Part shown: one piece after another, positions 3,941-41,966 of the stretch
Layout of the letters: each line of letters opens with the position of its first letter
Numbering within the stretch: position 1 is the first letter of the stretch
Assembly: GCA_023515725.1 (NCBI GenBank)
Contig: JALDTO010000179.1
Coordinates: 266,052-330,051 of the forward strand
Source: Amoeboaphelidium protococcarum X5
Taxonomy: Eukaryota; Fungi; Aphelidiomycota
Length of the DNA stretch: 64,000 nucleotides
Reading direction: 5' to 3'
Notes under the pieces: generated by a model
The model's database searches: none
Told to the model about the DNA's origin: nothing
Seen by the model: the letters and a program-made list of their open reading frames with translations, nothing else
Translations under genes and position numbers: made by a program

Positions 3941-4224
3941 TGTAAACTATGATTGTTAAAAAAAGTTATGAGAATAATATAAAAAATTAATGTAATATAA
4001 CTTTCATAACTTTACCAACACCTTCAGTTTCTGTGTGCGATGAGTGCGAACTACCGTCGTTGATTGGCAGCTAATTTTAGATTGGAGGTGGTGCATATAA
4101 TGATAATGCTCTAAATTGACAGCATCACCGCCTTCTTTCCAGTTTAATAACCAACCTTCACACCCTCTTTTTGACATTCAATCGATAATTGATAATCTCT
4201 GGCTATTTTAATTGATTTATTAAT

Positions 4225-6522
4225 ATGCAGGCATCATAAAACTATCATTATCAGAATCTGCAAGTGGCTGGCTCTCCATCGTGTTTCAATGGCGTCTAAA
4301 TGCACTTAAATGACAACATCCTTATCGCTTGTCATGCATATAATCCTTCAAGAGCAATGATAATAACCGTAAATCCTAGCAATTTTACGCGTTATTCTAT
4401 TGCGTATTAAATGGATACAGAATTACAGTTAACCTTCTTGCTACTGGACTCCAGCGATAACATTTACATGTTTCTAAATCCTTAGTAGAATGGCTCTATC
4501 CTAAAGGCTTCTGTCAGAAAGTTGACGTCCAACTTCACATACGTTTATTAATCAACTATTGGTAATGGGGTCACCGATGTATTAACATCCGGAGCTTTCA
4601 CTTCTACTGGTGATCTTATCTTTGGGGGATATACGAGAGGGTTTTTTGCCGGAACATTTGTCGGTGGTTCGTCAGATGCTATCTGTGGTATCTTGTAATA
4701 AAATGGCTTGATGGGAACAAAAAAACAATTTGGCACTTATTATAACGATAAAATCTTGGATATTGAAAGCTTTGATGGGCAGTATTTTGCTTTGGCTGGG
4801 TAGCATTCAGATACTGGCGTTGTCAGATTCTTTCATGCCAACTTAACCCAGATTAGGGAATCCTAACAATTCACTTCGCTGAACTTTGCCTACTTCTCTG
4901 CAGTGCATGCAACGGATTAATATTTCTACTTATCTGGCAGTGCGCGCACGTATAGTTAATCCAAAATTTATGGTTTATTGAATCGTTATCACCGTGGCAA
5001 TTTCTCATATGACGAAACCTTTGAAAGAATTGTGTCAAATAACAATATGGACGTATACGCGCCCGATATATTTGTGGATGAAGAAGCAGATATTCTCTAC
5101 GCAGCGATAGTGAATGTATACTATGGTAATAACTACTTGGGTATTATGAGGTTAATTGTCTCCAATTAGACCGATTTAGACTCCCCCATCTACACAAATT
5201 TGCCTAGTTCGCAGGCAATTTCTATTTAATTGCTGAGGAGTAAAAATGTAGTAATTACTGGCTCTGGGTCGGGAAGTGGGCTGACTCCTTTCTACTGGGC
5301 AGAGAATTACACGTATCCCTCTGCTGCACCATTAAATGGGCCACCCAGTTTGACTACTACAACTACATCGCTGAATACTCGCACTTCATCGTCCACCTCT
5401 AGGATTACAACTTCGATCAAGAGTAGCAGTACTAGCTCTTACAGTACTGTTGTAACTACGTCAACAAGGACTACTACTACTGCTACTTCTACTACTACTA
5501 TTGCTACTACTACTAAGAATTCTACTTCTACTACTACTGCTACTACTACTACTGCTACTACGAGTTCTACTACTGCTATTACGAGTTCTACTACTGCTAT
5601 TACGAGTACTACTACTGCTACCACGAGTACTATCATGAAGACAATTGCTTCATCAACTGCGACATCAAGTGATGCCTTGATAGCAACGACAAGTCGCAGC
5701 ACATCCTCTATATTCACGACTACCGAGATTCTGGAGTCTTCTGCCACCACCACTTCCGTCATAACTTCAAGTTCGAGAGCTACCAGTAGCGCTTCCGGTA
5801 CGTCTGATTAAGCGTCTGTATTGTCAACAAATTCTGTTGGATCATAGTCTAATTCGAAGTAATCAAGTTCTCAGACCACTACTAGCACATTGCATTAGTC
5901 ATAATCAGAGTCTTCAAGTGCGCCATTCGAGTCTACTATCACGTCGATCAAACTTATTAGCTCAACTGCATCTGATCTGATGTAGTCATAATCAGGCAGT
6001 CCAACTTCCACTTTGATTTCATCTACTGACTAATTGACATCAATAGTGATTAATGTTACTCCATCTGTGCAGTCTGGTATCATCATTACTACTAGCAGTT
6101 ATAAGTTGAGTGTGGTGCCTGTTGATGGCTCGAGTTCTATGGCTCTACCATCCTCTGCAGGCTACATTACTTTTAATCCTATTCTGTAGTCCGGCTCAAG
6201 CTTATCGACCAGTGTTGATACTCGTGATAATGGTGGCAATAATAATAATAATAACTCGCTGGTCAACCAAAGCTCCCCTGCTGCCAACTTCTTCGCCGAT
6301 ACTACCAGAATAGTATCTCTAACGGCCGGGTTTATTATTTTGCTAACTATCGCCATAGTTGTAGGCTTCAGAGTAGTTAGGAAACGCAGAGCTAATGCTC
6401 GTGCTAAATTGGCCGTGATTGAGCAGAGTACTTATGAATCTCCTACGGTAATTGCTGCTATGAACGCCACCATCCCTTTGCAGTAAACCACAATGACGCA
6501 GCAATACAGTTCTTATACGTGA
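4225..6522 (+). CDS. Type I membrane surface protein, paralog 2 (tandem duplicate of the previous gene)
   Basis: TGA-free frame from 4225 to TGA 6520-6522. Shares NPSNF.RYS.A, LDS.DNI, PD.F.DE, TGSG...PFYW.EN.TY.SA and tail AMNATIPLQQTTM with paralog 1. TM IVSLTAGFIILLTIAIVVGF. The 5' exon is uncertain (possible acceptor taatatgcag at 4230). Confidence 0.75.
5440..5640 (+). repeat. Thr/Ser low-complexity repeat including a 21-nt tandem unit (acgagttctactactgctatt)
   Basis: TSSTTAI repeated 2-3 times within the stalk. Confidence 0.85.
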
Positions 6523-21879: not shown

Positions 21880-22923
21880 ATGACGGCTAGTAATATTATT
21901 GTCATAGGGACGCGTCAATCTCCGCTGGCTGTGACTTAGACTCAGATGGTTTGTGACGCTATAAAGGAAATATATCCAGGCCATGATGATCTACAAATAG
22001 AAGTTAAGCACATCAAAACTACCGGAGATAACGTACTTGATGTGCCTCTAAATAAAATTGGATAGAAATCTTTATTTACCAAAGAATTGGAGGTGGCTTT
22101 ATTGAATAAATAAGTAGATTTGGTTGTCCACTCTCTGAAGGACGTGTCAACCACTCTGCCAGACGGTCTTCATCTGGGAGCTGTTTTAGAACGGGAAGAT
22201 CCGCGCGATGTGTTGATCTTACGCGCAAATCATCCACTAACAACAGGTAAACTTGAATCTCTTGCCGACCTGCCTGCTGGAACTGTGTTGGGAACTTCAT
22301 CGGTCCGTAGACTTGCTTAGCTGAAGCACATGTTCCCGCAGTTGCAATTTAAAGATATCCGTGGAAATCTAAATACGCGTTTACATAAGTTGGACACTAT
22401 GATGAAAGAGTAGCCTGATGATGGCTAATACGCGTACGATGGTCTTATTCTGGCATATGCAGGAGTTAAACGAATGGGATGGGAGACTAGAATTTCCCTT
22501 GTTCTTGAGAGTGATGCAACCGTGTGTAAATAGCCAGTTTTGTACGCAGTTGGTCAAGGCGCGTTGGCGATAGAGTGTAGAGCGGAAGATATACGTGAAA
22601 AACCGTTTATCCGCACTGTGTGTGAGCAGTTGACGCACAAACCAACTTTGATGCGCTGTACCGCTGAGAGGACCCTGATGCGGCGGTTAGAAGGCGGATG
22701 TTCCGTTCCTATCGGTGTTCATACATCATATGACTCTGCTGATAAGCAGCTGAATCTTTGTGCTGTAGTGTGCTCTGTTGATGGAGGATAACGAATTGAA
22801 GCAGAGATGGTGAGGAAGTGCGATTCACTGGAATAGGCGCACCTGCTCGGAGATGAAGTTGCACAAGACTTACTTGACAAAGGCGCATCCGCTATATTAT
22901 CGTCAGTTCCTAGAAATACATGA
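21880..22923 (+). CDS. HEM3: Porphobilinogen deaminase
   Basis: [65 protein letters not shown]. Confidence 0.97.
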
Positions 22924-23209
22924 ACTTATCACTTTTTGATGTTAATTTGCAATGGATAATTTTATCTCACTACCTTAATCGTAGTTTTGAAGTTGTGAGT
23001 AAGCGGTCTAATTTTTAGAATATCCAGTTGGGAAATTCTAAAGGTTAGATTGTGACAATACAGCGAGCAGGTAACTTCAGTAGACCTGAAATTAACTTAC
23101 AGTAGTTGAGTATAATTTATTGTCTATCCTCAAACCTTTTCCTATCAGTACTCTATCTCTAAGCGACATATAGTCCAAAAACGCAAAGCTCGATAAGTAA
23201 GATCACTAA

Positions 23210-24598
23210 CCAAATAAATTTATTCAAACTACCAGCGATACATCATGCTTCTTGTACACCTGCAATCTCATTCAACATCTTGATGTCACGATTACACATT
23301 TGCGAGAACTCCTAATATGACATTTGAATTGCCAACTTTGCGTGTCCAAAATCAATGAAGAGCAGTTAATCTCCTTTCCACATTATATTACGCGGTGCAA
23401 CGTCACCATGAGCTACGCCATTTTAATGAATTAACTATAATGAATCACGCAACTGCCGATAATGTGCTTAAATGTCAGCGACAGTAGATACACGTTCCAG
23501 GCGCTCTATCATTATAGCCTCAATCCAGCCATCAATCGACAGACGCGCCAACAATCTCGGAATGACAGTACCTTGCAATCTAGATAGCTTCAGATAACAT
23601 TAATGCTCTTAATCGATGGCATATACTTTTAAATGTTCTGGATCCTTGGTGGAGTCAGCCATTTTCAGCACCAATTAATGCGATCTAATTTCGACTTACC
23701 TATTATCATCGGATCTAAATGTAGTATGGATACCACCAAATACAACTGAATAAAGCTCAGAACCGCCAACAACTCGTTCAAAGTATACTTCATGAAGGCC
23801 GACATGCGTCACAACAGAAGTGTCAAAAACTTGATAATCGGGTTACATTGCAGGAGTGGGAGACGCGAAAATGCAATGATCTTTATTTTCGCAGAGATAA
23901 AACATGGCACATACAGCCTCCATCAAAGTGAATGGCGCACTTTAATCACGATGCACGGCGCTACTTACCTCCAAAGTGCTTTACTATCTCCCATCAGATC
24001 CACCACGACGCAGAAAGAAGAACTTATCAGCCGTACAGATTATTCCATATCTGTTATGATTAACAGACATGTAGCCATATTCTTGCCGTAACACCTTTTT
24101 CTTGATCTCCTCTTAATTAGTGAAATCAACAAGATCATCATCCACATCGAAAGCCCACATTGTCTTGATCTCAATTGGCAAGATGCAGCGGCGGCTAGGG
24201 TCGCCCTAATACTACAAAATAAGATCAGGATGGAGTCCTACAGCTGGACCGATATCTTAATGAATCACAGACCCACCCAAGGATTTGGCGATGTCTTCAG
24301 CGATCAAAAATACGCGAAGAATCAAATAATGCTTTACTTATGCCTCACTACCGACACTGACTGTACGCTAGTTAATTCCAATGTAGCAATCCATATCCAA
24401 AAGCGGCTAAATATGAATTCTATACGGAAAAATGACATCTTAGTCAAAGGATTTCCATAATTTCAACTCAATATCATCTAATTCACGAGGATGCCTCGGT
24501 ACAGACAGCTAGGTAGAGGTGCGGTCCTAACTGATCTCTGTGCTAGCGGGTATATGATTTAATAAATCACGTAATAATGTCATTGTTTATGTGATAAA
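23210..24598. repeat. Dispersed inverted duplication, arm A (partner at about 39065-40452)
   Basis: The reverse complement aligns without gaps to 39065-40452. Both CDSs are 1341 nt. Confidence 0.95.
23243..24583 (-). CDS. PD-(D/E)XK nuclease plus protein kinase fusion, copy A (446 aa)
   Basis: Intact frame from ATG 24583 to TGA 23243. HPDLI...PIEIKT...LRQEYGYM..N...YGII.T.DKFFFLRR, then LKMAD, E.QCY.KL..LQGTVIPRL, HGDVAPRNIM, IDFG. Confidence 0.85.
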
Positions 24599-24634
24599 AT
24601 GGTAACAATTCAAAGAGAAAGAAACCGATTTACT

Positions 24635-24700
24635 GACTGACCAATCCTTAGAGGTGATTGGACGCATCGCAGTTGCCAATCGCTGACAATGCGCGTGATT
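24635..24700. promoter_or_regulatory. CCAAT-box cluster upstream of nuclease-kinase copy A
   Basis: gaccaatc, gattgg and gccaatc within about 50 nt, followed by gcgcgt. Confidence 0.4.
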
Positions 24701-26341
24701 ATAAGGGGCCTGCGCTAACATTTTAGCGCTCAAGTTTAGACTAAATCTGCGCTGGTAGATTCTAATCAATATTATCGAAGCCCAGTTCTGAAGATTCAAA
24801 TCAGTCCGACGTATTAATGTCTTCTTTCACGTGCACATGTCTATCCTGCCGGGTTCGCTGGGGTTCACATGTCGTGGACGGTTTCCGTCAGTTACTTTGG
24901 CAAAATTTAGAATCGTTAAGTCAATCTTAAAAGTTAAATCTGATAGTTCAAATTACTTATACGTCTAAAGTGTTATGCTATGGATTTAGACACAGATCGC
25001 ACCTTAAATTATTGGTTCCGTGTTGATGTCTACTCATTGTCACAATTTAACCAGAATCAGAAACGCTTGGTTGATTTGAATTACCATTTGCTCTACACAG
25101 TGCTTCCAAAATACTTAATTTTTTGCCCAACTTTAAGGGAATACCAGACATTTAGAGAAGCCGAGTCGTAATTAAGCACGCTCACCATTAGATCGTACAG
25201 CGCCGCACATTACGCAAGTAAATCACGCGTTTGTGGTATATATACTGCAAATACACCTTTATGTAAGATCCTGTCTCTGGCAGTGAAATGAGCACTCTTA
25301 CTCTGTATCATCAAAGAATCTCAACCACAATGAGGTTCTGATACTAATAGCCATTCGTTTTAACTCATTATCTACTATTAAGGTACTCAGCACCATACAT
25401 ATTCCTTTTTAACCATAACTTCAAACACTTGGCTCGTGTCAGGTACCAATTGGCTCTAGCTCAGATCCAAAGAAAGCAACTCAACTTCAGCGACGTAGAC
25501 AAAAACTTTCAATAAGATTATAATTAAGACTGTGCAGTAAATTCAAAATTAACTAGAATAATATCGCAGGGAATAGCACTGGGCTACTGTTGTCGTCAGA
25601 GCCAAATGGCCCTAAGTGCGCGCTCAAAGAGTAAACCGCGCTCTGCGTATTCCAGGCTGAGACTGGAGAGTAGATATGTGCATGTGCTTTAAGATCAGAA
25701 TACACTAATTTTTTAGTAATGGGAGCTTTATGATGTTCAACCTTACTGCCCACAGTGCTAGACAAAAAGTAACTGGTTCGGCGCACTTTGCAGTTTGGCT
25801 ATGATCAAGCACGACTCAAGGAGAATGACTATGGTCACAACATGAGAGTTCTTAAAAGTCTAGTGTTTTTCAAAACACGTTGAATGTTGCATTTACAAGG
25901 CATTTAGATAATTCAAGTTATTTATGATAGACTTGGAAGTAATCTGTCTTCAGAAGTGACCACCTCACCTAGAGTTTACTGACAGATTCTACAGAGTAGA
26001 ATGTTATAGAACACTAAATAGGCAACGATGAAACACTTGTAAACTACACGATATTTACTAATAAGCATACTGAATTAAATTTTGTAGTTGGTAAAGGTGT
26101 GACATGACTTGCTCAGAGAGCTTACTACTGTTACTAAAGCGCACAGCTATAAGCTAGCCAGCCACTTACAGTAGTTACACTGTACTCGCGTCTAAGTCGC
26201 GCGCTTTCTCTCGCAGTCACCGCGATTGAACAATTCGCTGATTTCATCTTCTGCCAAATATATTATAACGGTAGACGTGTGTCAACTACCGTAATCTTTC
26301 GCCTCAATCATTTAGTGATCAGATTGCTATAACTTGAGTAT

Positions 26342-29300
26342 ATGAATTTCGTTGGAAGTCTTGTGTCTACTGTTAGTGAGTTTTACAAAGACTTGAACCC
26401 TGCCACTTTATCGGGAGCCATAGACATTGTGGTTGTGGAGAGAGCTGATGGCACTCTGGCGTGTTCACCTTTCCATGTCAGATTCGGGAAGATGCAGTTA
26501 TTAAGACCCTTTGAAAAGAGCGTAATATTCTAATTTAATATGCCTGTTCACAAGTGCTGAATTTTTATTGTTATTTTGTTTATTGTAGGTGGAGATGAAA
26601 GTAAATGGCAGTGTGGTCGACATTCCCATGAAGTTGGGTGAAGGTGGAGAGGCGTTCTTTATAAAGGAGACTAATGATGAAGTTCCTGATGCGTATTAGA
26701 CATCGCCACTTGCCCTGACGCCATAGTAATTATCCTCTGGTCATGTGCCTCCATTGTCTGGCTTGGATAATTTGAAATTAGATCCTACGGCTCTGACTCG
26801 GTCTTCGTCTGACCAGCAATTGAATGTCGGCTTCGTGTCTCCTCTGGATGCCAAAAATTTTGATTTTGATAGTGAATAACTGAAGACTGCTGGATCATCT
26901 CGGCTTGGCTCTAATCCTGGCAATCTTAATGTTGGGCACAGTGTGATAAGAGAGCATCCTCTATCCGATTCTGAGGTTTTGATTGGCAGTAGTAGCAGTA
27001 ATAAGGATAGCATAGGTGTGGGATATAATGCTTCCGCGTAGTAATCGGCCATTCCAGCCAAGATGCACATGAGTGATACAGAGATGGATTATCTGGACCT
27101 CGGTGGTGGCGAAAAGTTGAATGCTCAGAATCCCTAATAGTTTACTCAATGGAAATGGGGATTGCTACCGTCCAATGAAAGCTAGTAATATTCCGAGGCA
27201 GTGCCATCTTCCAATGTTAAAATCGCGTCTAAAGCAAAGCCGGAGGATCGAAATTTGTAATCCAGTTAAGAATCTCAATAGGCGGAAAAGAAGCATCTTG
27301 AAGTTAGGAATACTTAAGTTGATAAGGTGGACCAGTTGATTTAAGACTTGCTTAGTGAAAATGAGCGAGGTGGATTAGAGATTTAGTTATCAATGTGCGG
27401 TAAGGCTTGTGCTGATCCTGAGCAATTCTCAAGCAAGTTGATATCTTTTAAGGATTTCAAATCTAATCCCCTGTCTATCTTGCAGGATGAAAACTTGGTT
27501 ATAAAGGTGAATGATGAGTACTTGACTTGGCATGTTCTAGGTCCTGCTCTGGTGTCCAAGCTCTTCTTCAAAGATCATCTGGACCCTGAAGTATTGTAGA
27601 CTCTAGCCCTTATTCCATCACTACTCACCCAAAAGTCTGAACTCGATGCATCTTCCTCAATGGCCACTGGTATTTAGACTGGCGGTAGACTAGAATAGAA
27701 GAGCACCGCTACAAAGAGCTGGTGGTGGTCATCCACTCGGGAAAAGTCTCCTGAAAGACGTGGCTAGATTTCTGATAAATCTACAATTGATGCTACTGAG
27801 TAGCCTCCGCTTTCAGCACCAGTAGGGATCAAAACTCAGGATATTTAGCTGAGTGATACGGCAACGATCAAAAGTCTTGATGCGTCATATAGATAGGGTG
27901 ATGGTTCCGCGATGAATTAAACAACTACTGCAATGTCTGCTCCTGCTTAGAGTAGGCCCCTATCAGCTCCTAATCTGGGTGAGGTGATTTAAGCTTAGTA
28001 GTATAAAGCCAAGTTCTTTAGCAAAACTCTGCGCTTGACGTCTGACCAATTACGATCTCTTAATCTTAACTATGGAGCTAATACTGTATCTTTTAGCGTC
28101 GCATCGTCTTATTCTGGAATCGCCACTTGTACTGCGCGAATATTTCTATGGAAGTATAATGTTTAGATTGTAGTATCAGATATTGACGGTACGATTACAA
28201 AATCTGATGCTCTTGGTCATCTGCTACCAATGCTTCGGATGGATTGGACTCATCCCGGTATTGCTAACCTCTATACTAGCGTTAAAAACAACGGATACGA
28301 GATTCTCTATTTGACTAGTCGAGCCATAGGTCAGGCTGATATCACTCGAGGCTATTTAAAGGGGATAGAGCAAGGATCTTATCAATTGCCAGACGGACCG
28401 GTGATTATGTCTCCTGATAGATTGATTGCGGCTCTGAAGCGAGAGGTTATTGATAGGAGGCCTGAAGAGTTCAAGATTGCCGTTCTCAAGGATATAAAAT
28501 CTCTTTTCAAGTCTAGAAATCCGTTCTATGCTGGCTTTGGTAACAGAGTCACGGATGCAATGTCCTATAGAGCTGTGGATATACCGACATACAGAATTTA
28601 TTCAATCAATAGTCAGGGAGAGATCAAGATGGACTTCTTTGTCGGCTACACGTCCAGTTATGTGAAGTTGAGAGATTTGGTGGATCACATATTTCCTCCG
28701 ATCAGATCCAAGATTCAGAGCATGTCAAAGTCCGCCAGTCTGGATGTCTTGCCTGGAACTCCTAAGAGCAACAGAAGTGCCAGAAGTAAACGATTGGCCG
28801 GACGCTAAGGTTCGAATGCATCAGCTCGTAAACCGTCTTCTATACGCACAGATGCCACCAGCCTGAGACCGATACAGGATTATGATATATTTGGTGAAGA
28901 GTCGGATGAAGCTGATCGTCCTTCTGATGACGGAGAAACTGAATATGAAGCGGGTGATCAAGAGAGTTCTGGATAATCAGTCGATGAAGATGATCTACAT
29001 TCATCTCAAGATTAGGCTAATGAGGCTCTGGAAGATTCAGATTCATTGGAAGCTATTGAAGACGGATATGATGATTTTGTGTACTGGAAGACTCCCTTGT
29101 TGAACGCTGTCGAGTTACCAGCTGAAGTAGTCAATGCATCTAAATCTAAAATACATGATGGTGGCCCCAATGCTCGAACTAGAAAAGAATCTACTTTAAT
29201 TTACACTAATCCTTTAAAAAAGTATTCTGAGTACTCATCTTCATCATCGTCTGAGGATGGTGAAGAAGGAGATGACGATTATGATGATGAAGTGTACGAT

Positions 29301-29375
29301 GAATAGTATGAAGGCGAAGATGAAGATGAGGCTAGTAGTTAGACTGGCTATGCTGCAAAAGGAATTGATAAATGA
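26342..29375 (+). CDS. PAH1: Lipin/phosphatidate phosphatase Pah1, 1 intron (about 26523-26588)
   Basis: N-LIP domain [23 protein letters not shown] motif [22 protein letters not shown]. Confidence 0.97.
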
Positions 29376-29462
29376 ACTGGATTGAGAAGCTAATGTGTAT
29401 ATGCACACTCTGTGATATTTTGGAATTCAATTTATTGATAAAATAAAGTCATAATCATCATT

Positions 29463-30366
29463 TCACTTCTTACGATCCTCTTGTTTAGTGAAGAATGAGG
29501 CCACACTCTTGAGACCTTTACTAGCCTTTTCCAACGACCTCATACCCAACGTCTTTTACTTCTACACATTTTAATATTTATGTAAGTCAATCCATATAAT
29601 TATAGATAGATACTAAATTATAGAAAGAACGTACCTTTGCTGACTTGTCCTTATCTCCGACAGAGCTAGATTGACTACTGTCGGCATTGCTATTTTACCG
29701 GCCATAATTGAAATAATTAATTTAAACTTTAGGTGCAATACCACAAGATTCCTTGATCTATAAACCATCTTTAACAAGACGCAACAAGTCCTCACCAACA
29801 TAATCTTGAAGCATTTCGAGAGCATACATCTTCAGCACATCACTATCACTTGCATCTAAGCCGACAGCTAAATTCTGCAACTATGTCTAATCCTCCGATA
29901 ATGATTACAAATACTTGACAATATTATCGACTTTCGAAGAGAGCCACGTAACAGCTTTATCCAAGTTGAAGCGATAGAATTCCTGGCCATCAAGATCTGA
30001 CACGTCAACCAAATGAGCTAGAAATTATAACGATAGTGCAGAATTTTACAATGATACGGCATCAATGAGCGCAGGTGGACATTCTGTATCGCCCAGTGAC
30101 ATGAATCTAGTCTTCGGGCAGTAGGGGAGTAATAAGAATAGAGGATCCACCTCGAACATTGTCAGAACCGCTCCATTAGATATGCAATAATCAGCAGGAG
30201 TAACCATAACTGACGTCTCATCACCAGCACCAACTTGCACCACTTGAAACCACTTTTCATAATCTGGACTATGCGCAAATACAGCGGGCTCTTTACAATC
30301 TCCAAGTAGACATTATATCACATTAAGTTTATCGCTTATATCTTCAGGTGTAACCAGAAGTCTCAT
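29463..30366 (-). CDS. RNASEH2B: Ribonuclease H2 subunit B, probably 1 intron near 29570-29634
   Basis: SNGAVLTMFEVDPLFLLLPY, FYRFNLDKAVTWL, and C-terminal PIP-like KGLKSVASFF. Confidence 0.75.
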
Positions 30367-30479
30367 TTTATTATAACCAATACTAATTTAGTGCGCCAAA
30401 GAGAGTAGATACTAGTACAGTACAGTCCAAAGAGGTCAAATGTGTATTGGAAAAAGTAATGGAAGATTGAACGATGAAG

Positions 30480-30520
30480 AAGACGCGACAATTGAACGCG
30501 TTCTGAAAGTGAAACAGCTA
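30480..30520. promoter_or_regulatory. RNASEH2B promoter with ACGCGA, ACGCGT (MCB) and TGAAACA
   Basis: acgcga 30483, acgcgt 30496, tgaaaca 30510. Confidence 0.45.
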
Positions 30521-30620
30521 TCATATGGTCTCGATAGACTGAATAAATAGAATGCGATCAGAGTGTACACTTTATTGTATTTTAATAAATTTCCGCGTAG
30601 TTAATAACATTAATACAATC

Positions 30621-30776
30621 ATGTAAAGTGAGGAAGAGTAGGCTCAACGCCCTAGTCCAATATTAACCTTTCATCAGCATATTCCACCACAGGATAAAAC
30701 GAACCTGCGTGATCAAGTACAGTATTGTATAAGGGATTCGTATTAAACACACTCTTCAACTAATGGTCAAGAATGA
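30621..30776 (+). CDS. Putative small protein of about 51 aa, possibly spliced
   Basis: ATG after an A-rich leader and a CGCG/TGAAAC-bearing promoter. MQSEEEQAQRPSPILTFHQHIPPQDK. No homology recognised. Confidence 0.3.
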
Positions 30777-31099
30777 TTCACCATATATTGGAAGCGCCTC
30801 TTCTGAATTACCATTTTTATTAGTCTGACTGACTGACTGATGGAATGAATGTGATATGAAACAGTCCACCCCTCAATAAAACCTTTTGACGCGAAACTGG
30901 GCTGGATTGTTTTCAGCGTTTGAAACATTTCTCTCCTTAAACTGTCGCCTTGTCGTCCAGTTTGAAGCTTTCTTCTTTTCCAATTTCGATCGATTCAACG
31001 AAAGCTAATATTTAAACAGCTTTTTTTAAAATTAAGCTTTATCTCATCATTCTCATTTACTAAAGTTTTTTACTATTCTGTCAAGACATTAGTAGTGAA

Positions 31100-32848
31100 A
31101 TGAATAATCTCTTGAACAATTTGCCGTGGGATGTCAAGTCCACCATTACCAAAGTTAAGAATGCAGTTATGAATTACACTGAGATGGAGGCCAAGGTTCT
31201 GGAGGCCACTAATAATGACCCATGGGGAGCATCTTCCACCCTGTTGTTGGAAATTAGTCGTGGAACATCTAGCTATTAGTACTTTAATGAGATCATGCCT
31301 ATGGTGTACAAGAGGATCCATGAGCCTTAGTAGAATGGTACACCTTAGAAGTGGAGACAGGTTTACAAGAGTTTGCAGCTGATTGATTTCCTGCTGAAGA
31401 ATGGCGATAGACGGGTAATTGATAGCGTGCGTGATCACTGCTATGACTTTAAGGCTCTATCTTAGTCATTCAAGTTTGTGGATGAGAAGGGCAAGGATCA
31501 AGGTATCAATGTGCGTCATCGTGCCAAGGAGATTGTTGAGCTGGTGAATGACACTGAGCGATTGAGTATGGAGAGGGACAAGGCGGCTGCGAATAGGAAT
31601 AAGTACACTGGTGTGGCTGCAGATGAAGTTCGCTCAGGCAGTGGGGGATTCGGTTCAGCTTCAGGAGGTAGTAGATATGGTGGGTTTGGTAGTGACACTT
31701 ATCGCCCATCGACCGGTGTGGCTGAATATGATTCACCAGCATAGGGTGGGAGTTCATCTTATGGAGGTGTTGGTGGCTCTTATGGTAACGATTCTAGTAG
31801 TCGTAAGCAGTCAGATCCAAAGCCGTCCATTCCTATCCCACAAATGTCAAATAATCAATCACAGAGTTATAGCAACCAACCGCAGGTGTCTTCCGAAAGT
31901 GCCGTTGGAGTTTCTTCCAAGTAGCAGCAGTAATAGTAGTAGTAATAATAGTAGACTGTCAATTTACTTGATTTGGATTTTGGTAGTGCCACTTCGTCTG
32001 CTCCTCAATAGTATAATCAGCAAGCGAATAGTACTTTTGGGAATTCAGGCTTGGTACAGTAGACTAGTCGCTCAGTTGTATCCCCTTAAGGTAGTGGAGG
32101 CTTTAACACCCAGCCGGTCAATTAGAGCTTCTCTTAACCATAATTGAATGCTGGATAGTTTTAAAATTTTGGACAACCATAACAGTAGTAGTAGAAGTAG
32201 TAATGGAATGGTACCAGCTCGATCATGTCTTAAAGTTCTTAATCGAGTGGCGGTCTATCTTAGCCGGCCAATGGTGGCATGAGTGGTACAAATCAGATGC
32301 AGATTAATCCCAATGCATCTTCCTCCAACGGTTTTGAGGGCTTTGGAAGTGGATTTATGTAACCACCGAGAGTCACCTCCCCAATGTCTCAGACTTCTTC
32401 TGTTGGAGGTATGGGTTTGGCATCTCAGCCAGCCGCACCCATGTAAACTCAGTCTAGCTTCTCTGGAAATGGCTAGAAAAATTCATTTTCCGCCCCTCCA
32501 GTGATGCCAGTGGCTTCCAACAATGGACTTATGATGGCTGCACAACCATAAAACTCCACTAGTGCCACCCGTCAGCCTTAACAGTAGTAGAATTCCAGTT
32601 TTAATTTGAAGCCGAACGATGTGTGGAATACTAATTTGGTGTCTCTTGACTCACTGGGAAAGTAGAGCAGTTCTCCGTAGACTGGACCTGCGTTGAATGA
32701 GCTGGCTGCATAGAAATAACAAGGTTAGTCGTAGTAGTAGATGTAGTCGTCTTTTGGGTAATTTGGAGGTGCCTTTGGTGGACCGAGCTCAAGTGCTCAG
32801 AATCCTCCATAGAAGAATCAGAATAATTTTGATGATTTGCTGCTATGA
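31100..32848 (+). CDS. ENT3: ENTH-domain epsin-related protein (Ent3/epsinR)
   Basis: KVKNAVMNYTEMEAKVLEATNNDPWGAS, WRQVYKSLQL, GKDQGINVR. Gln-rich tail, LLDLDF clathrin-box-like motif, C-terminal NFDDLLL. Confidence 0.92.
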
Positions 32849-32960
32849 GCTGCTAGGCATGAGTGAAAAGTGCAAATTACTTGGTGATGTGAAGTGGATT
32901 ACATTTATTTTTTGGGATATTATTTCATGTAAGTGGTCGTGGTGTATTTTACAATCTTGT

Positions 32961-34887
32961 TCAACATCCAGATGACTGCTATTGATAGAGTCGAGATGAG
33001 TATGGTTAAAGTTGCTCTGTAGACGCGCCTGAAATCTTCATAAAATCGACAACTTTAGCCAGAGCTTCCATCAGATCACCGGCCGGATACTCAACTTCTT
33101 CCCCTGTGCGTTTAGCCACAGCTTCGCTCTCTAAAATTGAGTCCACCAGCAGTTTCCAATACTTTACAGCTAAATCTTTCTTATTGAGCTATTCGTACAG
33201 TTGAGCAATCTTGGACATTGCCATAAATTCTTGAGATGACAAACTTTCATCCTGTATCGTGGTTTCAGTGCCCAGAGCACCATGAAATATTTCATCTGAT
33301 GGATCAATCATGATCTATTTCATGGTTGAATGGCAGCTCAATGATTTCTTATAGCTTTTCACAGCGTCATCGTATTGATTAGTAACTTCGTAGATATTGG
33401 CCAGAGCAATCCACAATCTTCCGTCATGTGGTCGCAATTTGACAGCCTTCTAAAAGTAATAGATAGAATATACTGGCATCTGTAACATCTCGTACGCTTA
33501 TCCAAGACCGTACCAAGCGCGATAGTCTGATGGACAAATCTGAATCGCTTTCTGGTACGAGTCCAACGCTGCATCAGTATTCCTAGCCTCGATGTACTCA
33601 TGTCCCATTAAAGTATAAGCCGAGGCAGCCTGAAGATCAATAGCTGAACGGTATTAGTTATCAGCTCCGAACAATTTCACAGCTCGATCAAACATCAAAA
33701 TTGCATTGGCGCTGAGTCCTTTCATACTAAAGTAATTACCCAGTACAAAGCATGTCTCAGGCCTTAAACTCTACGGGTCTACATTCTTCACAAGGTGATG
33801 GGCAAGTGTGGACAATGCTGCACTATCATCTTGAACAAAGAGGACGTTAGAGTATGTTTGGGTGATCTCGACGTTGTACGGATCGCTAACCATCAACTCT
33901 CTGAATATTTCACTGGCACTCTCAAAATCTCGCAAGTGATACATGATACTTGCCCTTTTACTTTCAAGCCACTGCGATTGAGGGAACAACTTTTGCAAAT
34001 CAGACAGCATCAATTAAACTTAGTCAACCGAGCCGACTGAAGCAGATTATCCAGGTGAAGGCCCAATCTCTGAAGCGACTTGTACAACAAACGAGATTTT
34101 GTTTACATGCTCCGGCAATTCGCCAATAACACTCTCCACCTACATGCAAATGAGTTAGTTGTGATCATAGAGAACGCCTGTTATAAACATACAATTTTCC
34201 AGTCTTGCATAAACTTGGCCAGCTCAAACCAAGATCCCGAGAACGTTGAATTCATCTATATTGATTTAACGAATGACTCTTTAGCTTTTTAACTCAAAGA
34301 TACACGTGCATAAACAAGGCCTTGAAGATAATACAGATAGCAGTCAGCATGTTTAGAGAGGAGAGTCTTGATTTAATCCAGCAAGGACATGAACTGATTA
34401 GATTGCAAACGATTTCTTTAATACTAACTGGTATCACTAGACTTTGATTATTCAACCTCCCCATTAACGATATCCAGCGAAATTTCCTAGCCAATAATAT
34501 GAAAATACTCGGCATACAGGGCAATAAACTTTATGAAGGATGGTAAGTTGTTATCATTCAAGTTGACACTATTATAACAACGCTTGTAATCTTTCAAATC
34601 AAAATACGACTTGCAGAGTAGATACTTTTGAATGTAACCACCAGCTAGTACCATTTAATTCATTGAATGGCTACTAATCTACTCCCCTACGATTTCTTGA
34701 CTTGTTTACATACTATTTACCAGTTCTGAACTCCTACATTAGAATCAATTCCTTTTCAACTCAGTTAATAAAACACATATAGCTAGTGATCATACCAACA
34801 TGATGCATAGTATAAGCCACGAGATTGGCATTAAAATGCTTCGGCAATAAAAGATTTCACAACCTGAGATTATTGTATTTTCACCAT
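32961..34887 (-). CDS. CDC23: APC/C subunit Cdc23/Apc8 (TPR), intron at about 34734-34795
   Basis: RGLY...[46 protein letters not shown] (Q encoded by TAA). Confidence 0.93.
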
Positions 34888-35039
34888 TACACACACACGC
34901 CCTCTCACACAGAGTAAGATAAAACTGAATTATACTATGGTGCTAAGGAATAAAGTACGGTAAATGAAAGCAAGATAGAGAGAGAGAGAAAGAGATGAAT
35001 GTGAAACCAACGTTTTAGAGAATCAGTGAAGAAAAGGCG

Positions 35040-35100
35040 GTCTTGCGCTGAAACAATGCTGAAGACGCGACGCGACAAACTGTTTCAGCTCGTCCTTCTC
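35040..35100. promoter_or_regulatory. Divergent CDC23/SMC2 promoter with tandem ACGCGA (MCB/SCB-like) and TGAAAC motifs
   Basis: tgaaaca 35049, acgcgacgcga 35065-35075, gtttca 35082. The same motif pair recurs upstream of other genes. Confidence 0.5.
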
Positions 35101-35273
35101 TTTCTCTCTTCGTCCTTCTCCTTACATGCTCTAGTTATATGGTATATATTAGGCCATACTACTCTATAATTAGAATTTGTGTTTGTCTATTTATTGCATA
35201 GTCTTCTTCATTAGTCTGTCTGAGTTGTATAGTATTTAAGGAATTATTGTTTTGAAGAGTTTATCCAGTTGAA

Positions 35274-38200
35274 ATGTACGTTGAGGAGATTATCATTGAT
35301 GGCTTCAAGTCGTATGCTGTGAGAACTACGCTGAAAGATTTTTCTCCCCATTTTAATGCCATCACTGGATTGAATGGTAGTGGCAAGTCTAATGTTCTGG
35401 ATGCTATTTGCTTTGTATTGGGATTGAGTTCGTCTAATCTGCAGCAGGTCAGAGCCTAGTCTTTGAATGATTTGGTGTACAAGAAGGGATAGGCTGGTGT
35501 GGTTCGCGCCAGTGTCAGCATAGTGTTCAAGAATGATAATAAAGACTAGAGTCCTGTGGGATTTGAGAAATGCGACAAGATTACCGTGACCAGATAGATT
35601 GTCATCGGTGGAAAGAATAAGTATATGGTGAATGGAAGTCAGGCTCATTAGAACACTGTATAGAACTTGTTTCAGTCCGTTTAGTTGAACATTAATAATC
35701 CTCACTTTCTCATTATGCAGGGTAGAATTACCAAGGTGCTGAATATGAAGCCTGTAGAGATTCTGAGCCTGATTGAGGAGGCTGCCGGCACCAGGATGTT
35801 TGAAGAGAAGAAGGAGAAGGCATTGAAGACCATTGAGAAGAAGGAGGCCAAGGTTGTCGAGATTAATGAGCTAATGGACAAGGACATTGCTCCAAAGTTG
35901 GACAAGCTGAAGAAGGAGAAGCAGGATTTTTTGAATTTCCAAAAGATTGAGAGTGAGGTTGAACGACTGAGGAGACTTTTGATTGCTTTTGATTTCTATC
36001 AAGCTGATGGTTAGCAAAAGTAATTGACCGAGTAAATAAGTGAAATAAATGATCAACTCTAATAGTATAAGAGTAAAGAGGAGGATTTGGAAGGAGATAT
36101 AAAGTTTGCGCAAGAGAGTATTTAGGAACTGAACTAGCGCAAAGATTAAGAATTGAAGAAGAGCAGTAAATTCAAGGCTTTGTAGGAGACTGTTGCATCT
36201 CTATCAAGTCAATTGACTAGATTATCTGCACAGAAAGATATTGTTTTTAAGTCTATAAAGGATGAGGAGAAGAGTATTGCTGAGTTGATTAAGGCGACTG
36301 ATGCTGGTGAGAAGCAATTAGCTGCTATGGAGAGTAGAGTGATGCAAAGTAAGACTGCACTTGCTTCTGATCAGGATTCTCTGGATGGTGACATTGCAGC
36401 AGTCAAGAAGTAGGAAAATCTCCTGTAGACTCTAACGACAGGAGTAGCTGATTCTGAAGGCTAAGATAATGGGTATGCTGACTAGTTAAATCAGTTAAAG
36501 GTGGGCAAATCTAAGGTTATGGTTGAGGTTGAAGATTGTAAGTAGCGTTTGTAGTATCAAAATAGTCAGCTGGCTACTAAAAAGCCATAGGCAAAGGAGG
36601 CTGAAAAGGCTAACAAGTCTTAGTTGAAGTAGTTGGAAACTCTTAAAGCCGAGCTGAGTAAATTGGAGGCTGAGAGATAGAAAAGTGTTATTGATGAGTC
36701 TTTGGGATAAGATTTGAAGAGCAGAAAGTAGGAAAAGATTCATGAAATCAGAAAGCTGCAGTAGGAGATTGACAATTTATCTGGACAATTGGCCAACTTT
36801 GATTTCAAGTATGCCGACCCTCATTCCAACTTTGATCGAAAGAAGGTGCGCGGTCTCGTTGGACAATTGATTAAATTGTAGAAGGAGAACCTGGAGTTTT
36901 GTACAGCTTTACAAATTTGCGCTGAGGGACGGTTGTACTTTGTCGTTGTTGAAGACAACAAGGTGGCTAGTGACTTATTGAAGAATGGTAAGTTGCAAAA
37001 GAAGCACACCTTTATTCCTCTGAAGTAGATAGTTCCACCAAATATTGCTCCAGAAAGAGTTTAAAGAAGTAAATAGTTAGCTCCCGGTAAGGTTGAATCG
37101 GCTTTGGATCTTTTGCATTTTCAGAAGGATGTTGAGCCTGCTATGAAGTTTGTCTTTGGTGGTACTTTGGTTTGTAAAGACGCAGAGGCTGCTAAATTGG
37201 TCACTTACGACTCCAAGGTCAGACTGCGTACCATCACTGTTGACGGTGATGTCTATGAACCTGGAGCTACTATTACAGGCGGTAGTTCTCCGTCAAGTAA
37301 TAATATTTTAGAGAAGCTGTATCTATTGTCCGCTGCTCAGGATCAATTGGACAAGGTCAAGTTTGAGCTCAAGGATATTAACGACCAGATTGAGTAATTC
37401 TAATAGAAACTGGACTTGTTTAACGGCTTGGATTCTACATGTAAGAGAAAGCAGAATGAATTGAAAAATTTGGACGATTTGATAAAGTCTAGTACTGCTG
37501 GCAGGCTCATCTCGGAAGTTTTAGAGTTGGAGTAGAACACTTAGACTTTAAAGGACTAACTAGCTATTGCTGAAAGTAAAGTTGGTGAACTTGATAAATA
37601 GATCAAGTCTGTTGAGCTGGAAATGAGAGAATTCGATTCTAACAGAGATGGATAGTTGAAGAAGATTGAGAAGACCTTAACATCCGCTAAGAAGGCTTTG
37701 GTCAAGAAGCAGGCGGATTTTAAGCTAAAGAAGACTGAACATGATTCATTGCTTGCCGAGTTTGAATAGATGATGTAGGACAGGAATGAGTCTATGCAGT
37801 CTTTGGAAGAGATGAAGACTTCTCTGGCTAGTTAAGAGTCGGAATTGAAAAAGATGATCTCCGAAATTGAAGCACTAAAGACTGATTATGACACTCACAA
37901 CAAGGAATTGCAGAAGTAATCTAAAGTGTTCTTATAGTTTGACAAAGATATTGCGGCCATGTAAGCGGAAGTGAAGTAGAAGCAGAGTATGATTCAAGAA
38001 CTGCATTTGAATTCAAAGAAGCATAACATTGACCTCGGTAACGCACAGAAGACTTTGGCTGATGCTCAAAATCTCTGCGTCGTTATTGAAAAAGAGCACG
38101 AGTGGGTGGCCGATTAGAAGGGCAACTTTGGTAAACCAAATACTGCATTTGACTTCAGTCGTATGGACGCGAGTGATTGTTCAAAGAAGCTCACCAAATT

Positions 38201-38987
38201 GTAGGCTGAGTATGAAGTTTTGCGAAAGAAGATCAATGTCAAAGTCATGAACATGATCGACCGTGTGGTGTAGAAGGAGCAGTCCCTCAAGCAGATGCTG
38301 GCCACTGTCCGCAAGGACAAGGAGAAAATTGAAGAGACAATTCAGTAGCTTGACCATTACAAGAGAGAGGCTCTGCAAAGAACTTGGCAGAAAGTTAATG
38401 GAGATTTTGGCGCCATTTTTAACGATCTTTTACCTGGCAACACTGCAAAGCTGGATCCTGTCGAGGGCCAGACCATTTACGATGGTCTTGAGGTGAAGGT
38501 GCGACTGGGTAAAGTGTGGAAGTAGAGTCTTACTGAACTCAGCGGTGGCTAGAGATCTCTTGTCGCTCTTTCATTGATTCTGTCATTGTTGTAGTTCAAA
38601 CCAGCTCCAATGTACATTCTTGATGAAATTGATGCTGCCCTGGATTTGTCACACACGCAGAATATTGGACATCTATTCAAGAACAGGTTTAAAGGCTCTC
38701 AATTTATTGTAGTCTCTCTGAAAGAAGGGATGTTTAATAATGCAGACGTGCTGTTTCGCGCCAGATTCCGTGATGGAACTTCTGTTGTCGAACGCTTCAC
38801 TTAGCAAACAGTCACCGGCTCTGAAATACCCGTCGCGTCATCATCGGGTAGTAGAAAAGCAGCTACATCTAAATCTTCAAAGAAGAATGGTGGCGGTGGT
38901 GGTGATGATGACGAAGAAGAAGAGTACTCCGAGTAGAATGAAAATGCAGTTAATTCGAAGCAGCAAAAGAAGACTCGACGTGGATGA
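35274..38987 (+). CDS. SMC2: Condensin subunit SMC2
   Basis: [42 protein letters not shown], hinge, [23 protein letters not shown]. Conserved Gln residues are encoded by TAG. Confidence 0.98.
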
Positions 38988-39064
38988 AATTATCGTTTGA
39001 ACTGAAAAGTTGAAATTTACCGCGTGTGTCTTGTATAGTTTTTCCGTCTTTTATTTATCAGGGA

Positions 39065-40452
39065 TTATCACATTAACAATGACATTGTTACGTGATTTAT
39101 TGAATCATGTACCTGCCAGAACAGTAACCATTAAAAACCGCACCTCTACCTAGTTGTTTGCACCTCAAGATGCGCGTGAATTAGATGATATTGAGTTGAA
39201 ATTATGGGATTCTTTTGATCAGGATGTCATTATACCGTATAGAATTCATATTTAGCCGCTTTTGGATATGGATTGCTACATTGGAATTAATTAGGATACA
39301 GTCTTTGTCGGTAGTGAGGCGGAAATAAAACACTACTTGATTCGTCGCGTATTTTCGATTGCTGAAGACATCGCCATATCCTTGGGTGGGTCTGTGATTC
39401 ATTAAGATATCGGTCCAGCTGTAGGACTCCATCCTGATCTTATTTTTCGGTACAAGGTCGACCCTAGCTGCGGCTGCATCTTGCCAATTGAGATTAAGAC
39501 AATGTGGGCTTTCGATGTGGATGATGATCTTATTGATTTCACTCATTAAGAGGAGATTAAGAATAAGGTGCTGCGGCAAGAATATGGCTACATGTCCGTT
39601 AATCATAACAGATATGGAATAATCTGTACTGCTGATAAGTTCTTCTTTCTGCGTCGTGGTGGGTCTGATGGGAGATAGTAAAGCACTTTGGAGGTAAGTC
39701 GCGCCGTGCATCGTGATTAAAATGCGCCATTCACGTTGATGGAGGCTGTATGTGCCATGTTTTATCTCTGCGAAGATAAAGATCAATGCATTTACGCGTC
39801 TCCCACTCCTGCAATGTAACCCGATTATCAAGTTTTTGACACTTCTGTTGTGACGCATGTCGGCCTTCATGAAGTATACTTTGAACGAGTTGTTGGCGGT
39901 TCTGAGCTTTATTCAGTTGTATTTGGTGGTATCCATACTTCATTTAGATCCGATGATAATAGGTCAATCGAAATTAGATCGCATTAGTTGGTGTTGAAAA
40001 TGGCTGACTCCACCAAGGATCCAGAGCATTTAAAAGTAGGTGCCATCGATTATGAGCATTAATGTTATCTGAAGTTATCTATATTGCAAGGTACTGTCAT
40101 TCCGAGATTGTTGGCGCGTCTGTCGATTGATGGCTGGATTGAGGCAATAATGATAGAGCGCCTGGAACGTGTATCTTCTGTCGCTGACATTTAAGCACAT
40201 TATCGGCAGTTGCGTGATTCATTATAGTCAATTCATTAAAATGGCGTAGCTCATGGTGACGTTGCACCGCGTAATATAATGTGGAAGGGTGATCAACTGC
40301 TCTTCATTGATTTTGGACACGCAAATTTGGCAAGTCAAATGTCATAATAGGAGTTCTAACAAATGTGTAATCGTGACATCAAGATGTTGAATGAGATTGC
40401 AGGTGTACAAGAAGCATGATGTATCGCTGGTAGTTTGAATAAATATATTTGC
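39065..40452. repeat. Dispersed inverted duplication, arm B
   Basis: Reverse complement of about 23210-24598. Confidence 0.95.
39079..40419 (+). CDS. PD-(D/E)XK nuclease plus protein kinase fusion, copy B (446 aa)
   Basis: Intact frame from ATG 39079 to TGA 40417-40419, with the same motifs as copy A. Confidence 0.85.
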
Positions 40453-40755
40453 ATTTTTTAGTCACATACACTTTATTACCTGTTAAACTTGGCGTATTTA
40501 GATTTCCATTTGTCTTGATTTACACTGGAGAACGATGTGAAGAGGTGTAAATATATAACAATGACTTCAGAAAATAGACAGAATGATACATGCAATGAAT
40601 TTGTATGCGTCAATTCTATGGTCCTGCACAGTAGAGTGAGTGACAAGCCGATTCGCATACTATAATTTATCATGAATCTGCCACCTACAGTACAACGAAT
40701 TTATCAATTTCTTTTTTCTATCTTGATCAACTAAACCACAAAATAGATTGCAAAA

Positions 40756-41966
40756 ATGAGTAAAAATCATATCAAAAGTGCTAAAAGTATCTTGTACAGC
40801 CTTGGATAGCTGCAATAACGCGTAAGTTATCGTCTATATGATAAGGAAATTTCATATCATAAAAACAATATGTAGCTTTCCAATACGGACGAAAATACCA
40901 GTCAGGATGTAAAGGATTAGCTGGCAATGTAGATTACGCGTAATCAAGAAATGGCGTTGGATGCGAAATTGGTAATCTAATTCACTTTAATGCAATGCTG
41001 ATAGATTTATTACATTCGTATAATATGTAGATTTAGTGCGAGAAATAGCATAGAAGAGAAATTAAGAAGCTTCTCACGTTTCATTTTCAAAAGCTCACCA
41101 AGAAGCTCTCTGCATTGCGATCAGATCTTGAATAGGACCAAGATATTTAATCTGCTCAAGATCTCAAAGCTAAAATTTCCCATTTAGAAACTGAATTAAT
41201 TCAAGCTAAAATGTCTGATATAGACTGGATTAGTAATCATTCCTGGAATTAGATATAGTCTGGGCTCTCCCGCGGTAAAAGTGTAGATCTCAGCGACAAC
41301 AATACTGACAGTGATGATAGTACTCAAGATGGTGACACTTGCAAGCCACTGATCATTGATGATAATTCTAAAAGGGCACTCTAGCGTTTATAGGATGATA
41401 AGAAGTATAAGAGCTTTGTTTAAGAATTGAAATCAGACTATGAAGCATTTAAAGAGCGCGTCTTTAAAGTCAATAAGCAGCACATGGAGAAACGTAAAGA
41501 AGATGTCGATAATGCTAAAGTTGCGCGCAAGTCCAACAGCTAACCGCGTTAGACTTTTAAGAGACCGCGATTTGATCCTGATGAAATTGACTTTGATGAC
41601 CTGATTGAGGATCCCGCAGTAAAAGCGCTGGAGTAGTAGTAGAAAAAGAAGAAGAATCGTCCTGGGTAATAAGCACGAAAGAGAAGTTATCTAGAGTAGA
41701 TTGGGTCTGCCAAGGGGCGCGATGGAAGACGCTCTCATACAACTGTTGTAGAACGCGACGACAGAAATAAATAATCTCTAATACCTGACCGGAGGGAGAA
41801 GCGAATTGAATCTATTAAGCGTAATCGTGGTGGTGTCAAGTCGAAAGTAAACTCGTAACGATCCAACACATTACATCCGTCATGGGAGGCTAAGAAGAAA
41901 TTGCAACAGGCTGGAATAGTTCCCTCTGCTGGCGTAAAGATTAAGTTTGATAGCGACGGTGAGTGA
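40756..41966 (+). CDS. BUD22: Bud22/SRFBP1 ribosome biogenesis factor, intron 40972-41030
   Basis: KKKKNRPGQQARK and C-terminal LHPSWEAKKK...GVKIKFD. Confidence 0.88.

Follow-up and report, generated by a model that had tools for sequence, protein, structure and literature searches.

Two closely related genes were found in the window, i.e., the whole stretch of 64,000 nucleotides of the Amoeboaphelidium protococcarum genome that was analyzed. As the preliminary description of this DNA had stated, both are open over 446 codons when TAA and TAG are translated as glutamine (translation table 6). Each encodes a predicted nuclease domain followed by a predicted kinase domain, and the similarity between them is confined to a shared block:

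39079..40419, plus strand: copy A, intronless ORF for a 446-aa nuclease-kinase (table 6)
23243..24583, minus strand: copy B, 446-aa paralogue of copy A (table 6)
39065..40451, plus strand: block in common with copy B; it starts 14 nt upstream of the ATG of copy A and extends slightly beyond AATAAA (40438-40443)
23211..24597, minus strand: matching block around copy B, with AATAAA at 23224-23219

The two copies are 89% identical in amino acids and 93% in nucleotides, lie 14.5 kb apart and point away from each other. Under the standard code, 17 and 23 stops fall inside the two ORFs, and none is left when TAA and TAG are read as Gln. This reading is supported by CAG/TAA and CAA/TAA exchanges between A and B at codons 48 and 406, by the presence of TAR codons in every neighboring gene and by the assignment of TAR to Gln published for A. 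protococcarum (PMC6299283). The probability of 446 codons without TGA by chance is about 3e-4 per start; beyond this estimate, the homology of the predicted proteins settles that the ORFs are real. In copy B, an additional in-frame ATG is present upstream at 24721, outside the block shared with A. The motifs quoted for these ORFs in the preliminary description (HPDLI, PIEIKT, LKMAD, LQGTVIPRL, HGDVAPRNIM and IDFG) were all found. The gene had also been called hidden, with only antisense ORFs visible in its place. The antisense ORFs are ordinary shadows, of which there are many under table 6, and the gene was hidden from the ORF track of that first analysis only, as the exact proteins of both A and B are already in NCBI nr. 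The named close homologues are all hypothetical proteins of A. protococcarum; thus, the gene was already annotated, with no function assigned. The GC content of the copies is 0.41 and TAR makes up 0.61-0.77 of their Gln codons (0.50-0.63 in the neighbors). Recent horizontal transfer was rejected because both values resemble those of the neighboring genes.

The first half of the protein was assigned to the PD-(D/E)XK nucleases in accordance with the preliminary description:

39079..39798, plus strand: predicted PD-(D/E)XK nuclease domain of copy A, about residues 1-240 (from fold and conservation)
plus strand: nuclease residues of copy A, namely E80, P119-D120 (39433-39438), E138-x-K140 (39490-39498) and Q167xxxY171 (39577-39591)

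Modeling of this half alone gave a pLDDT of 93.7, and that of the whole protein A a pLDDT of 90.6 with a pTM of 0.88. The best structural match of the N-terminal half was the restriction endonuclease BpuSI (Z 11.0, rmsd 3.5, 147 residues aligned); DrdV (Z 9.3, rmsd 2.7, 131 aligned) and the Vibrio vulnificus HsdR 3h1t (Z 8.0, rmsd 2.9, 119 aligned) were also found, along with two mitoribosomal chains (Z 9.4 and 8.8). Foldseek again placed BpuSI first, with a weak E-value of 7e-3, and a PDB sequence search matched the kinase part only and no nuclease. In order to evaluate conservation, a profile of ten copies was used, which retrieved 1,537 representatives at E ≤ 1e-3 and 270 at ≤ 1e-10. The resulting alignment (A5) contains 116 rows, namely 105 of the 148 listed new matches and 11 earlier proteins; short or partial proteins were left out. 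E80, D120, E138 and K140 are intact in both A and B, and these positions and the QxxxY motif are each kept in 105-113 of the 116 rows (D120 in 113, E138 in 112, K140 in 105, Q167 in 112, Y171 in 113). The N-terminal half is therefore predicted to be a type I/IIG-like PD-(D/E)XK nuclease with candidate activity. The fold is common to type IIG and type I restriction endonucleases (Z 8.0-11.0 for BpuSI, DrdV and HsdR); unlike these enzymes, A and B include no methyltransferase, helicase or specificity subunit, and protection would have to come from the kinase.

The C-terminal half was likewise attributed, as previously described, to a minimal kinase with intact catalytic motifs:

39847..40401, plus strand: predicted minimal RIO-like kinase domain of copy A, about residues 257-441 (from fold, Pfam and conservation)
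kinase residues of copy A: K307, E326, H392-G-D394, N399 and D411-F-G, followed by a single helix

The closest structures were Rio2 (Z 15.6) and Rio1 (Z 14.8), the Pfam families RIO1 and APH both scored above the cut-off, and the model terminates one helix past DFG. K307, E326, H392, D394, N399 and D411 are each kept in 113-116 of the 116 rows; K307, E326 and D394 are present in all of them and D411 in 114. These data allow us to predict a minimal RIO-like kinase with candidate activity. The nuclease motif is broken and the kinase intact in 15 of the 116 proteins, and the reverse is found in 4. This asymmetry has the direction that an antidote model predicts, and it is confounded by a kinase-biased search, by tolerated variants of the nuclease motif and by the incompleteness of some of the proteins.

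The absence of a signal peptide, a transmembrane segment and a Crinkler ubiquitin-like header, also noted earlier, was consistent across several lines of evidence. No hydrophobic N-terminus was found in A or B using a simple hydropathy scan, which is not equivalent to SignalP (maximum 19-residue hydropathy 1.0-1.2). A Pfam scan returned no Crinkler header, and the model of A opens directly with the nuclease domain. The distance from the SMC2 stop to the ATG of copy A is only 91 nt, so there is no room for a header exon upstream. At the same time, the aphelid profile aligned collinearly over 371 columns with that of seven Crinkler-headed proteins (hhalign probability 99.95, E 1.1e-38), and the Pfam Crinkler header was found in 7 of 35 matches selected for their long N-termini. 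The earlier assignment to a Crinkler-type module is borne out by this profile match, according to which A and B have the known REase+kinase module of Crinkler (CRN/CR) proteins without the ubiquitin-like or helical header. The pairing of REase and kinase makes up about one sixth of CR C-termini (Zhang et al. 2016, via the review PMC5289972), and the wide distribution of nuclease-kinase pairs and their role in conflicts have already been published (PMC12693581, PMC5289972). A header-degenerate Crinkler-like selfish gene in fish provides a precedent for a selfish headerless gene (PMC12957317). The module itself is thus known. No publication on the family in aphelids was found among the matches listed; note that the set of Zhang et al. 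2016 may include headerless members.

The 148 listed profile matches comprise 63 headerless two-domain proteins, 28 proteins with an extension of at least 40 aa, 18 unclear cases and 39 partial sequences, and some of the 63 headerless calls possibly reflect incomplete gene models. Judging from these annotations, the headerless form is common and widespread and not peculiar to A. protococcarum. In a 42-row tree, A and B are placed in a clade of headerless proteins, separate from the six rows with a Crinkler header (SH-aLRT 99). The family tree contains many independent lineage-specific expansions, and the named A. protococcarum members fall into at least five divergent lineages; a single clade was rejected (AU p 4e-8). 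Ten of the top matches that were identified comprise three proteins of A. protococcarum, one of the liverwort Calypogeia fissa, one of the chytrid Borealophlyctis nickersoniae and five from metagenomes. The nearest named relative outside A. protococcarum is a liverwort protein; P0027, which is among the closest relatives outside the aphelid, is located on a 66.6-Mb contig of C. fissa. Eleven metagenome loci carry the nuclease-kinase module and some of them adjoin fungal-looking genes. The closest look-alikes belong to an unnamed fungal family of 420-490 aa annotated as "protein kinase domain-containing" (Basidiomycota and Ascomycota), which has named members in the chytrid and the liverwort, shares 20-39% identity with A/B and has no function attached in the libraries searched. 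In the Atlas, fungal clusters of 456-494 aa scored 0.99 and a Crinkler cluster 0.94. The top viral fold match was a DUF5898 protein of Pandoravirus (E 1.8e-10, TM 0.51); these uncharacterized proteins share the fold of A over the whole length at 12% identity. Motif scans with narrow patterns, which do not prove absence, revealed no relative among 82 candidates in viral contigs or among 17 in prokaryotic genomes. In addition, the A. protococcarum member P0044 has an N-terminal extension of 70 aa, and the relatives P0055 and L002 (L002:671-1621) carry coiled-coil-like headers that recall the N-terminus of Spok.

The resemblance to Spok, the meiotic driver named in the preliminary description, was found to be partial. 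The part that stands is the architecture: Spok proteins of Podospora and Fusarium and A/B have a nuclease first and a kinase second in a single chain. Both have the PD-(D/E)XK core with QxxxY, HsdR among the structural matches and an ELK-like kinase. The best match of the SPOK3 nuclease is the HsdR of V. vulnificus, with a QxxxY motif, and its kinase was described as ELK-like (Vogan et al.). Both are also multicopy, undergo gene conversion and show similarity reaching into the UTRs. The part that does not stand is membership in Spok itself. A and B are 446 aa long and Spok proteins about 700 or more; Spok has an N-terminal coiled coil, whereas in the model of A a helix of 5 residues and an extended arm are found at the N-terminus. 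Unlike Spok, A and B have no Starship or other transposon nearby and occur outside Ascomycota. Furthermore, the cysteine cluster that precedes the kinase in Spok (C-x3-C-x13-C-x5-H-x7-H), which is needed by SPOK3 for resistance (Vogan et al.), is absent from A and B and was found in 0 of the 116 proteins using a strict or a loose pattern. Any antidote mechanism of A/B therefore cannot equal that of Spok. Clusters bearing Pfam SPOK2_N scored 0.95 in the Atlas with the whole protein and 0.91 with the N-terminal half. The Pfam scan reported no SPOK2_N, no sequence search returned a Spok, and a word-based search with a deep alignment added only ordinary kinases. Kinship with Spok is thus a lead, drawn from the Atlas and the shared motifs and not from a direct comparison with a Spok sequence. 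Because the Crinkler header was not found and the Spok coiled coil and cysteine cluster are missing, A and B were filed under neither family.

Prediction of the complex of A with itself gave a homodimer score of 0.71, while the best of three controls reached 0.00; the runs agreed in at least 55% of contacts with a pLDDT of at least 74. Among solved structures, the mark used was passed by 21 of 30 homodimers and by none of 23 monomers; the corresponding figures for eukaryotic proteins were 17 of 29 and 0 of 30. Of the 7 eukaryotic homodimers for which no older relative had been solved, only one passed it, so the result for A may reflect memory of restriction-enzyme dimers. With this reservation, A is predicted to form a homodimer via the nuclease domain. 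The interface consists of 33 residues from the stretches 2-22, 67-100, 109-114 and 126-130, a location next to E80 and directly ahead of the PD motif. Most of them belong to one segment:

39277..39468, plus strand: hypervariable segment, residues 67-130, with most of the predicted homodimer interface

Ten of these 33 positions are occupied by different residues in A and B. In subfamily 1, 18 of the 33 interface positions are variable compared with 99 of 409 elsewhere (p 3e-4); within residues 1-132, the enrichment is not significant (p 0.06, and p 0.10 for unconserved columns). In subfamily 2, 22 of the 33 interface positions and 33 of 99 other N-terminal positions are variable (p 8e-4). These tests were post hoc, with no control for solvent exposure, and exposed surfaces vary anyway. 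The interface pN/pS is about 0.9 on 16 changes, which does not indicate positive selection. A conserved obligate interface should vary less, so the variability suggests copy-specific self-recognition or a surface whose binding target changes.

The neighbors of both copies are housekeeping genes, namely HEM3, lipin, RNase H2B, epsin, a TPR gene, SMC2 and BUD22. The shared block corresponds to a transcription unit and contains no intron; for this reason retroposition was considered, and it is unproven, as target duplications and poly(A) were not seen at either block. Terminal repeats were not seen either. An Rfam search of 22900-41100 gave no match. In one public assembly, the same contig carries five copies, whose locus tags form one group of two and one group of three, separated by five tags. 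Since B and A are likewise separated by five genes in the window, this contig probably represents the equivalent locus after tandem expansions. Tandem copy number thus varies, as estimated from annotated proteins and contigs, and with A, B and further paralogues the family differs from a single-copy housekeeping kinase.

In the runs X1, X5 and X6, a few of those available, copies are present at both loci in all contigs that bridge them, and no joint skips a whole copy among the 15 of 17 joints listed, nor in 3 of 3. Two versions of the left edge of copy A are bridged by contigs of X1, and two of its right edge by contigs of X6; in X5 and X6 the upstream flank of B is joined to a different N-terminal cassette. 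The summed contig depth over the gene core in X1 was 411-484, compared with 66-90 for single contigs, which fits several collapsed copies and is not a copy count. Contigs of X10 cover the ORF from 39075 to 40438 with 4-13% differences and skip two GT..AG introns in the next gene; a member of the family is therefore probably transcribed. The RNA nature of X9 and X10 was deduced from such joints only, and the lack of X10 cover at 40474-40661 was given no evidential weight. Further paralogues, which switch to divergent sequence at 39365 and 39994, are indicated by loose ends in X6 and X10; one of them matches an odd linker in P0003.

The seven full-length subfamily-1 proteins are mosaic (neighbor-incompatibility permutation p 0.0018). 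Differences between A and B amount to 13.6% in codons 1-132 and 3-4.5% elsewhere, and dS is 0.6 in codons 1-35 and 0 in codons 241-300. The N-terminal excess is thus also synonymous, which suggests old cassettes that escape homogenization. Positive selection was not found, since dN/dS between A and B is 0.36 overall and 0.26-0.40 by segment. Three subfamily-2 proteins (P0008, P0013 and P0014), encoded outside the window, are 84-86% identical, and 29-43 of their 63-74 differences fall within the first 120 residues. Their locus tags adjoin an orthologue of Pch2/TRIP13 (E 1.8e-88) in all three places, and these neighboring Pch2 proteins (P0016, P0017 and P0020) are 96-99% identical. A protein of 843 aa (P0018) fuses a subfamily-2 protein with Pch2 and is probably an annotation read-through. 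The large number of copies, the mosaic paralogues and the change that is faster than in the neighboring Pch2 are signs of evolution of a conflict type, as far as these sequences allow us to judge. The spreading proposed in the preliminary description is borne out in part, by the varying copy number and the mosaicism. The filled loci in the bridging contigs, the absence of marks of mobility and a dN/dS below 1 speak against active spread.

The best explanation found is that A and B encode a self-neutralized nuclease toxin acting between aphelid nuclei or spores, i.e., a single-gene poison-antidote system; we consider this reading to be evenly poised between right and wrong. The product would be a single cytosolic or nuclear protein, in which the predicted restriction-type nuclease likely damages DNA and the predicted kinase likely holds its own nuclease off in producing cells, possibly within the dimer. 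Such a role of the kinase can be assumed from Spok: killing requires the catalytic lysine and is exerted through DNA in both E. coli and yeast, and resistance requires the aspartate of the kinase. Any nucleus or spore in the cytoplasm of a carrier that does not have the same variant itself would inherit the toxin without a matching antidote. A dimer surface that varies among copies would restrict protection to the matching copy, and this surface would be rearranged by gene conversion. The arena would likely be the multinucleate plasmodium before its cleavage into uninucleate spores, and meiosis would not be needed. In Amoeboaphelidium, several amoebae can fuse into one plasmodium that is later cleaved into uninucleate spores (PMC3975115), and in Fusarium a Spok benefits from killing the nuclei of rivals once hyphae have fused (bioRxiv 10.64898/2026.10.04.756499), so an arena for conflict exists without meiosis; sex itself is unproven in aphelids (PMC3975115, PMC6299283). 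The absence of empty sites, of positive selection and of the Spok cysteine cluster argues against the toxin. Spok2, for its part, is near fixation. Note also that Spok drives, and A/B, known here from sequence, are candidates for drive.

The main rival, which we regard as unlikely, is a headerless anti-host effector that would be released into the algal cell, where the nuclease would attack host DNA and the kinase would tune it, as proposed for CRN8. Multicopy and fast-varying families are typical of effectors, and the A/B family is both. Moreover, A. protococcarum is an intracellular parasitoid, and the module equals that of Crinkler-headed proteins, as the hhalign match and the 7 headers among 35 long-N-terminus matches indicate. 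The kinase of CRN8 was described as a regulator of an outward-facing toxin and not as an antidote (PMC5289972). Against an effector, there is no header, no signal peptide and no room for a header exon, A and B belong to the headerless clade, and the nearest named relative outside the species comes from a non-parasite, the liverwort. In addition, the words Crinkler and nuclease do not occur in a dual-transcriptome paper on A. protococcarum.

A cell-autonomous defense or non-self response, in which the kinase would hold the nuclease until a virus, a mobile element or a foreign nucleus upsets the balance and DNA degradation and cell death follow, seems to us quite improbable. The restriction-enzyme fold, the full-length fold match in Pandoravirus, the stable loci embedded among housekeeping genes and the five or more divergent lineages kept in one species would agree with it, and some CR proteins were suggested to target invasive intracellular DNA (Zhang et al., via PMC5289972). 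However, the model shows no sensor domain, there is no known trigger, and a self/non-self conflict would account at least equally well for the copy-to-copy variation of a self-pairing surface. A domesticated or neutral multigene family, i.e., a kinase-regulated nuclease of DNA metabolism or a relaxed family with mosaics as a by-product of conversion, is very unlikely in our view. Purifying selection, the loci common to several samples, the native codon use and the neighbors SMC2 and Pch2 would favor it; varying tandem copy number, divergence faster than that of Pch2 and many independent expansions stand against it.

The self-neutralized toxin may be taken one step further, to a minimal and ancient Spok-type killer in which the conversion-shuffled dimer surface would serve as a password and non-matching nuclei or spores would be eliminated in the fused plasmodium without meiosis. 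We hold this extension to be conceivable and on balance doubtful. If it is true, the headerless nuclease-kinase genes of fungi, chytrids and a liverwort, which number in the hundreds, would form an unrecognized reservoir of selfish killers that reaches back to the sister group of fungi. How one Spok protein acts as both poison and antidote and why Spok paralogues give no mutual protection are stated open questions (Vogan et al.; PMC12693581). A and B could make these questions testable in E. coli or yeast, being much smaller than Spok, with a high-confidence model, a natural series of variants and a defined surface (residues 67-130). Should A or B kill, the range of single-gene killers would reach beyond Ascomycota, into the sister lineage of fungi and into a plasmodial life cycle; should they not, a functionally unannotated nuclease family of conflict type would be present in a parasite of mass-cultured algae.

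Some other features of the window were observed. Loose ends and altered joints were found at 25440-25700 upstream of copy B in X1, X5 and X6, where a 12-nt inverted pair (25446-25457/25598-25609) is located; a small repeat or an inversion polymorphism is possible. A contig of 1,070 nt from the RNA-like X9 (24955-26024) falls between copy B and lipin, in a gap of 1.9 kb in which no convincing ORF and no Rfam family were found. Loose ends and back-joints at 31910-31960 in several runs fall in the CAG/TAG-rich poly-Gln of the epsin gene and are probably a repeat artifact. Finally, two tandem paralogous ORFs of 746 and 765 aa (1700-6522) encode proteins whose N-terminal part is rich in beta structure and which also have a long Thr/Ser stalk and a hydrophobic segment at the C-terminus; they resemble surface or adhesion proteins.
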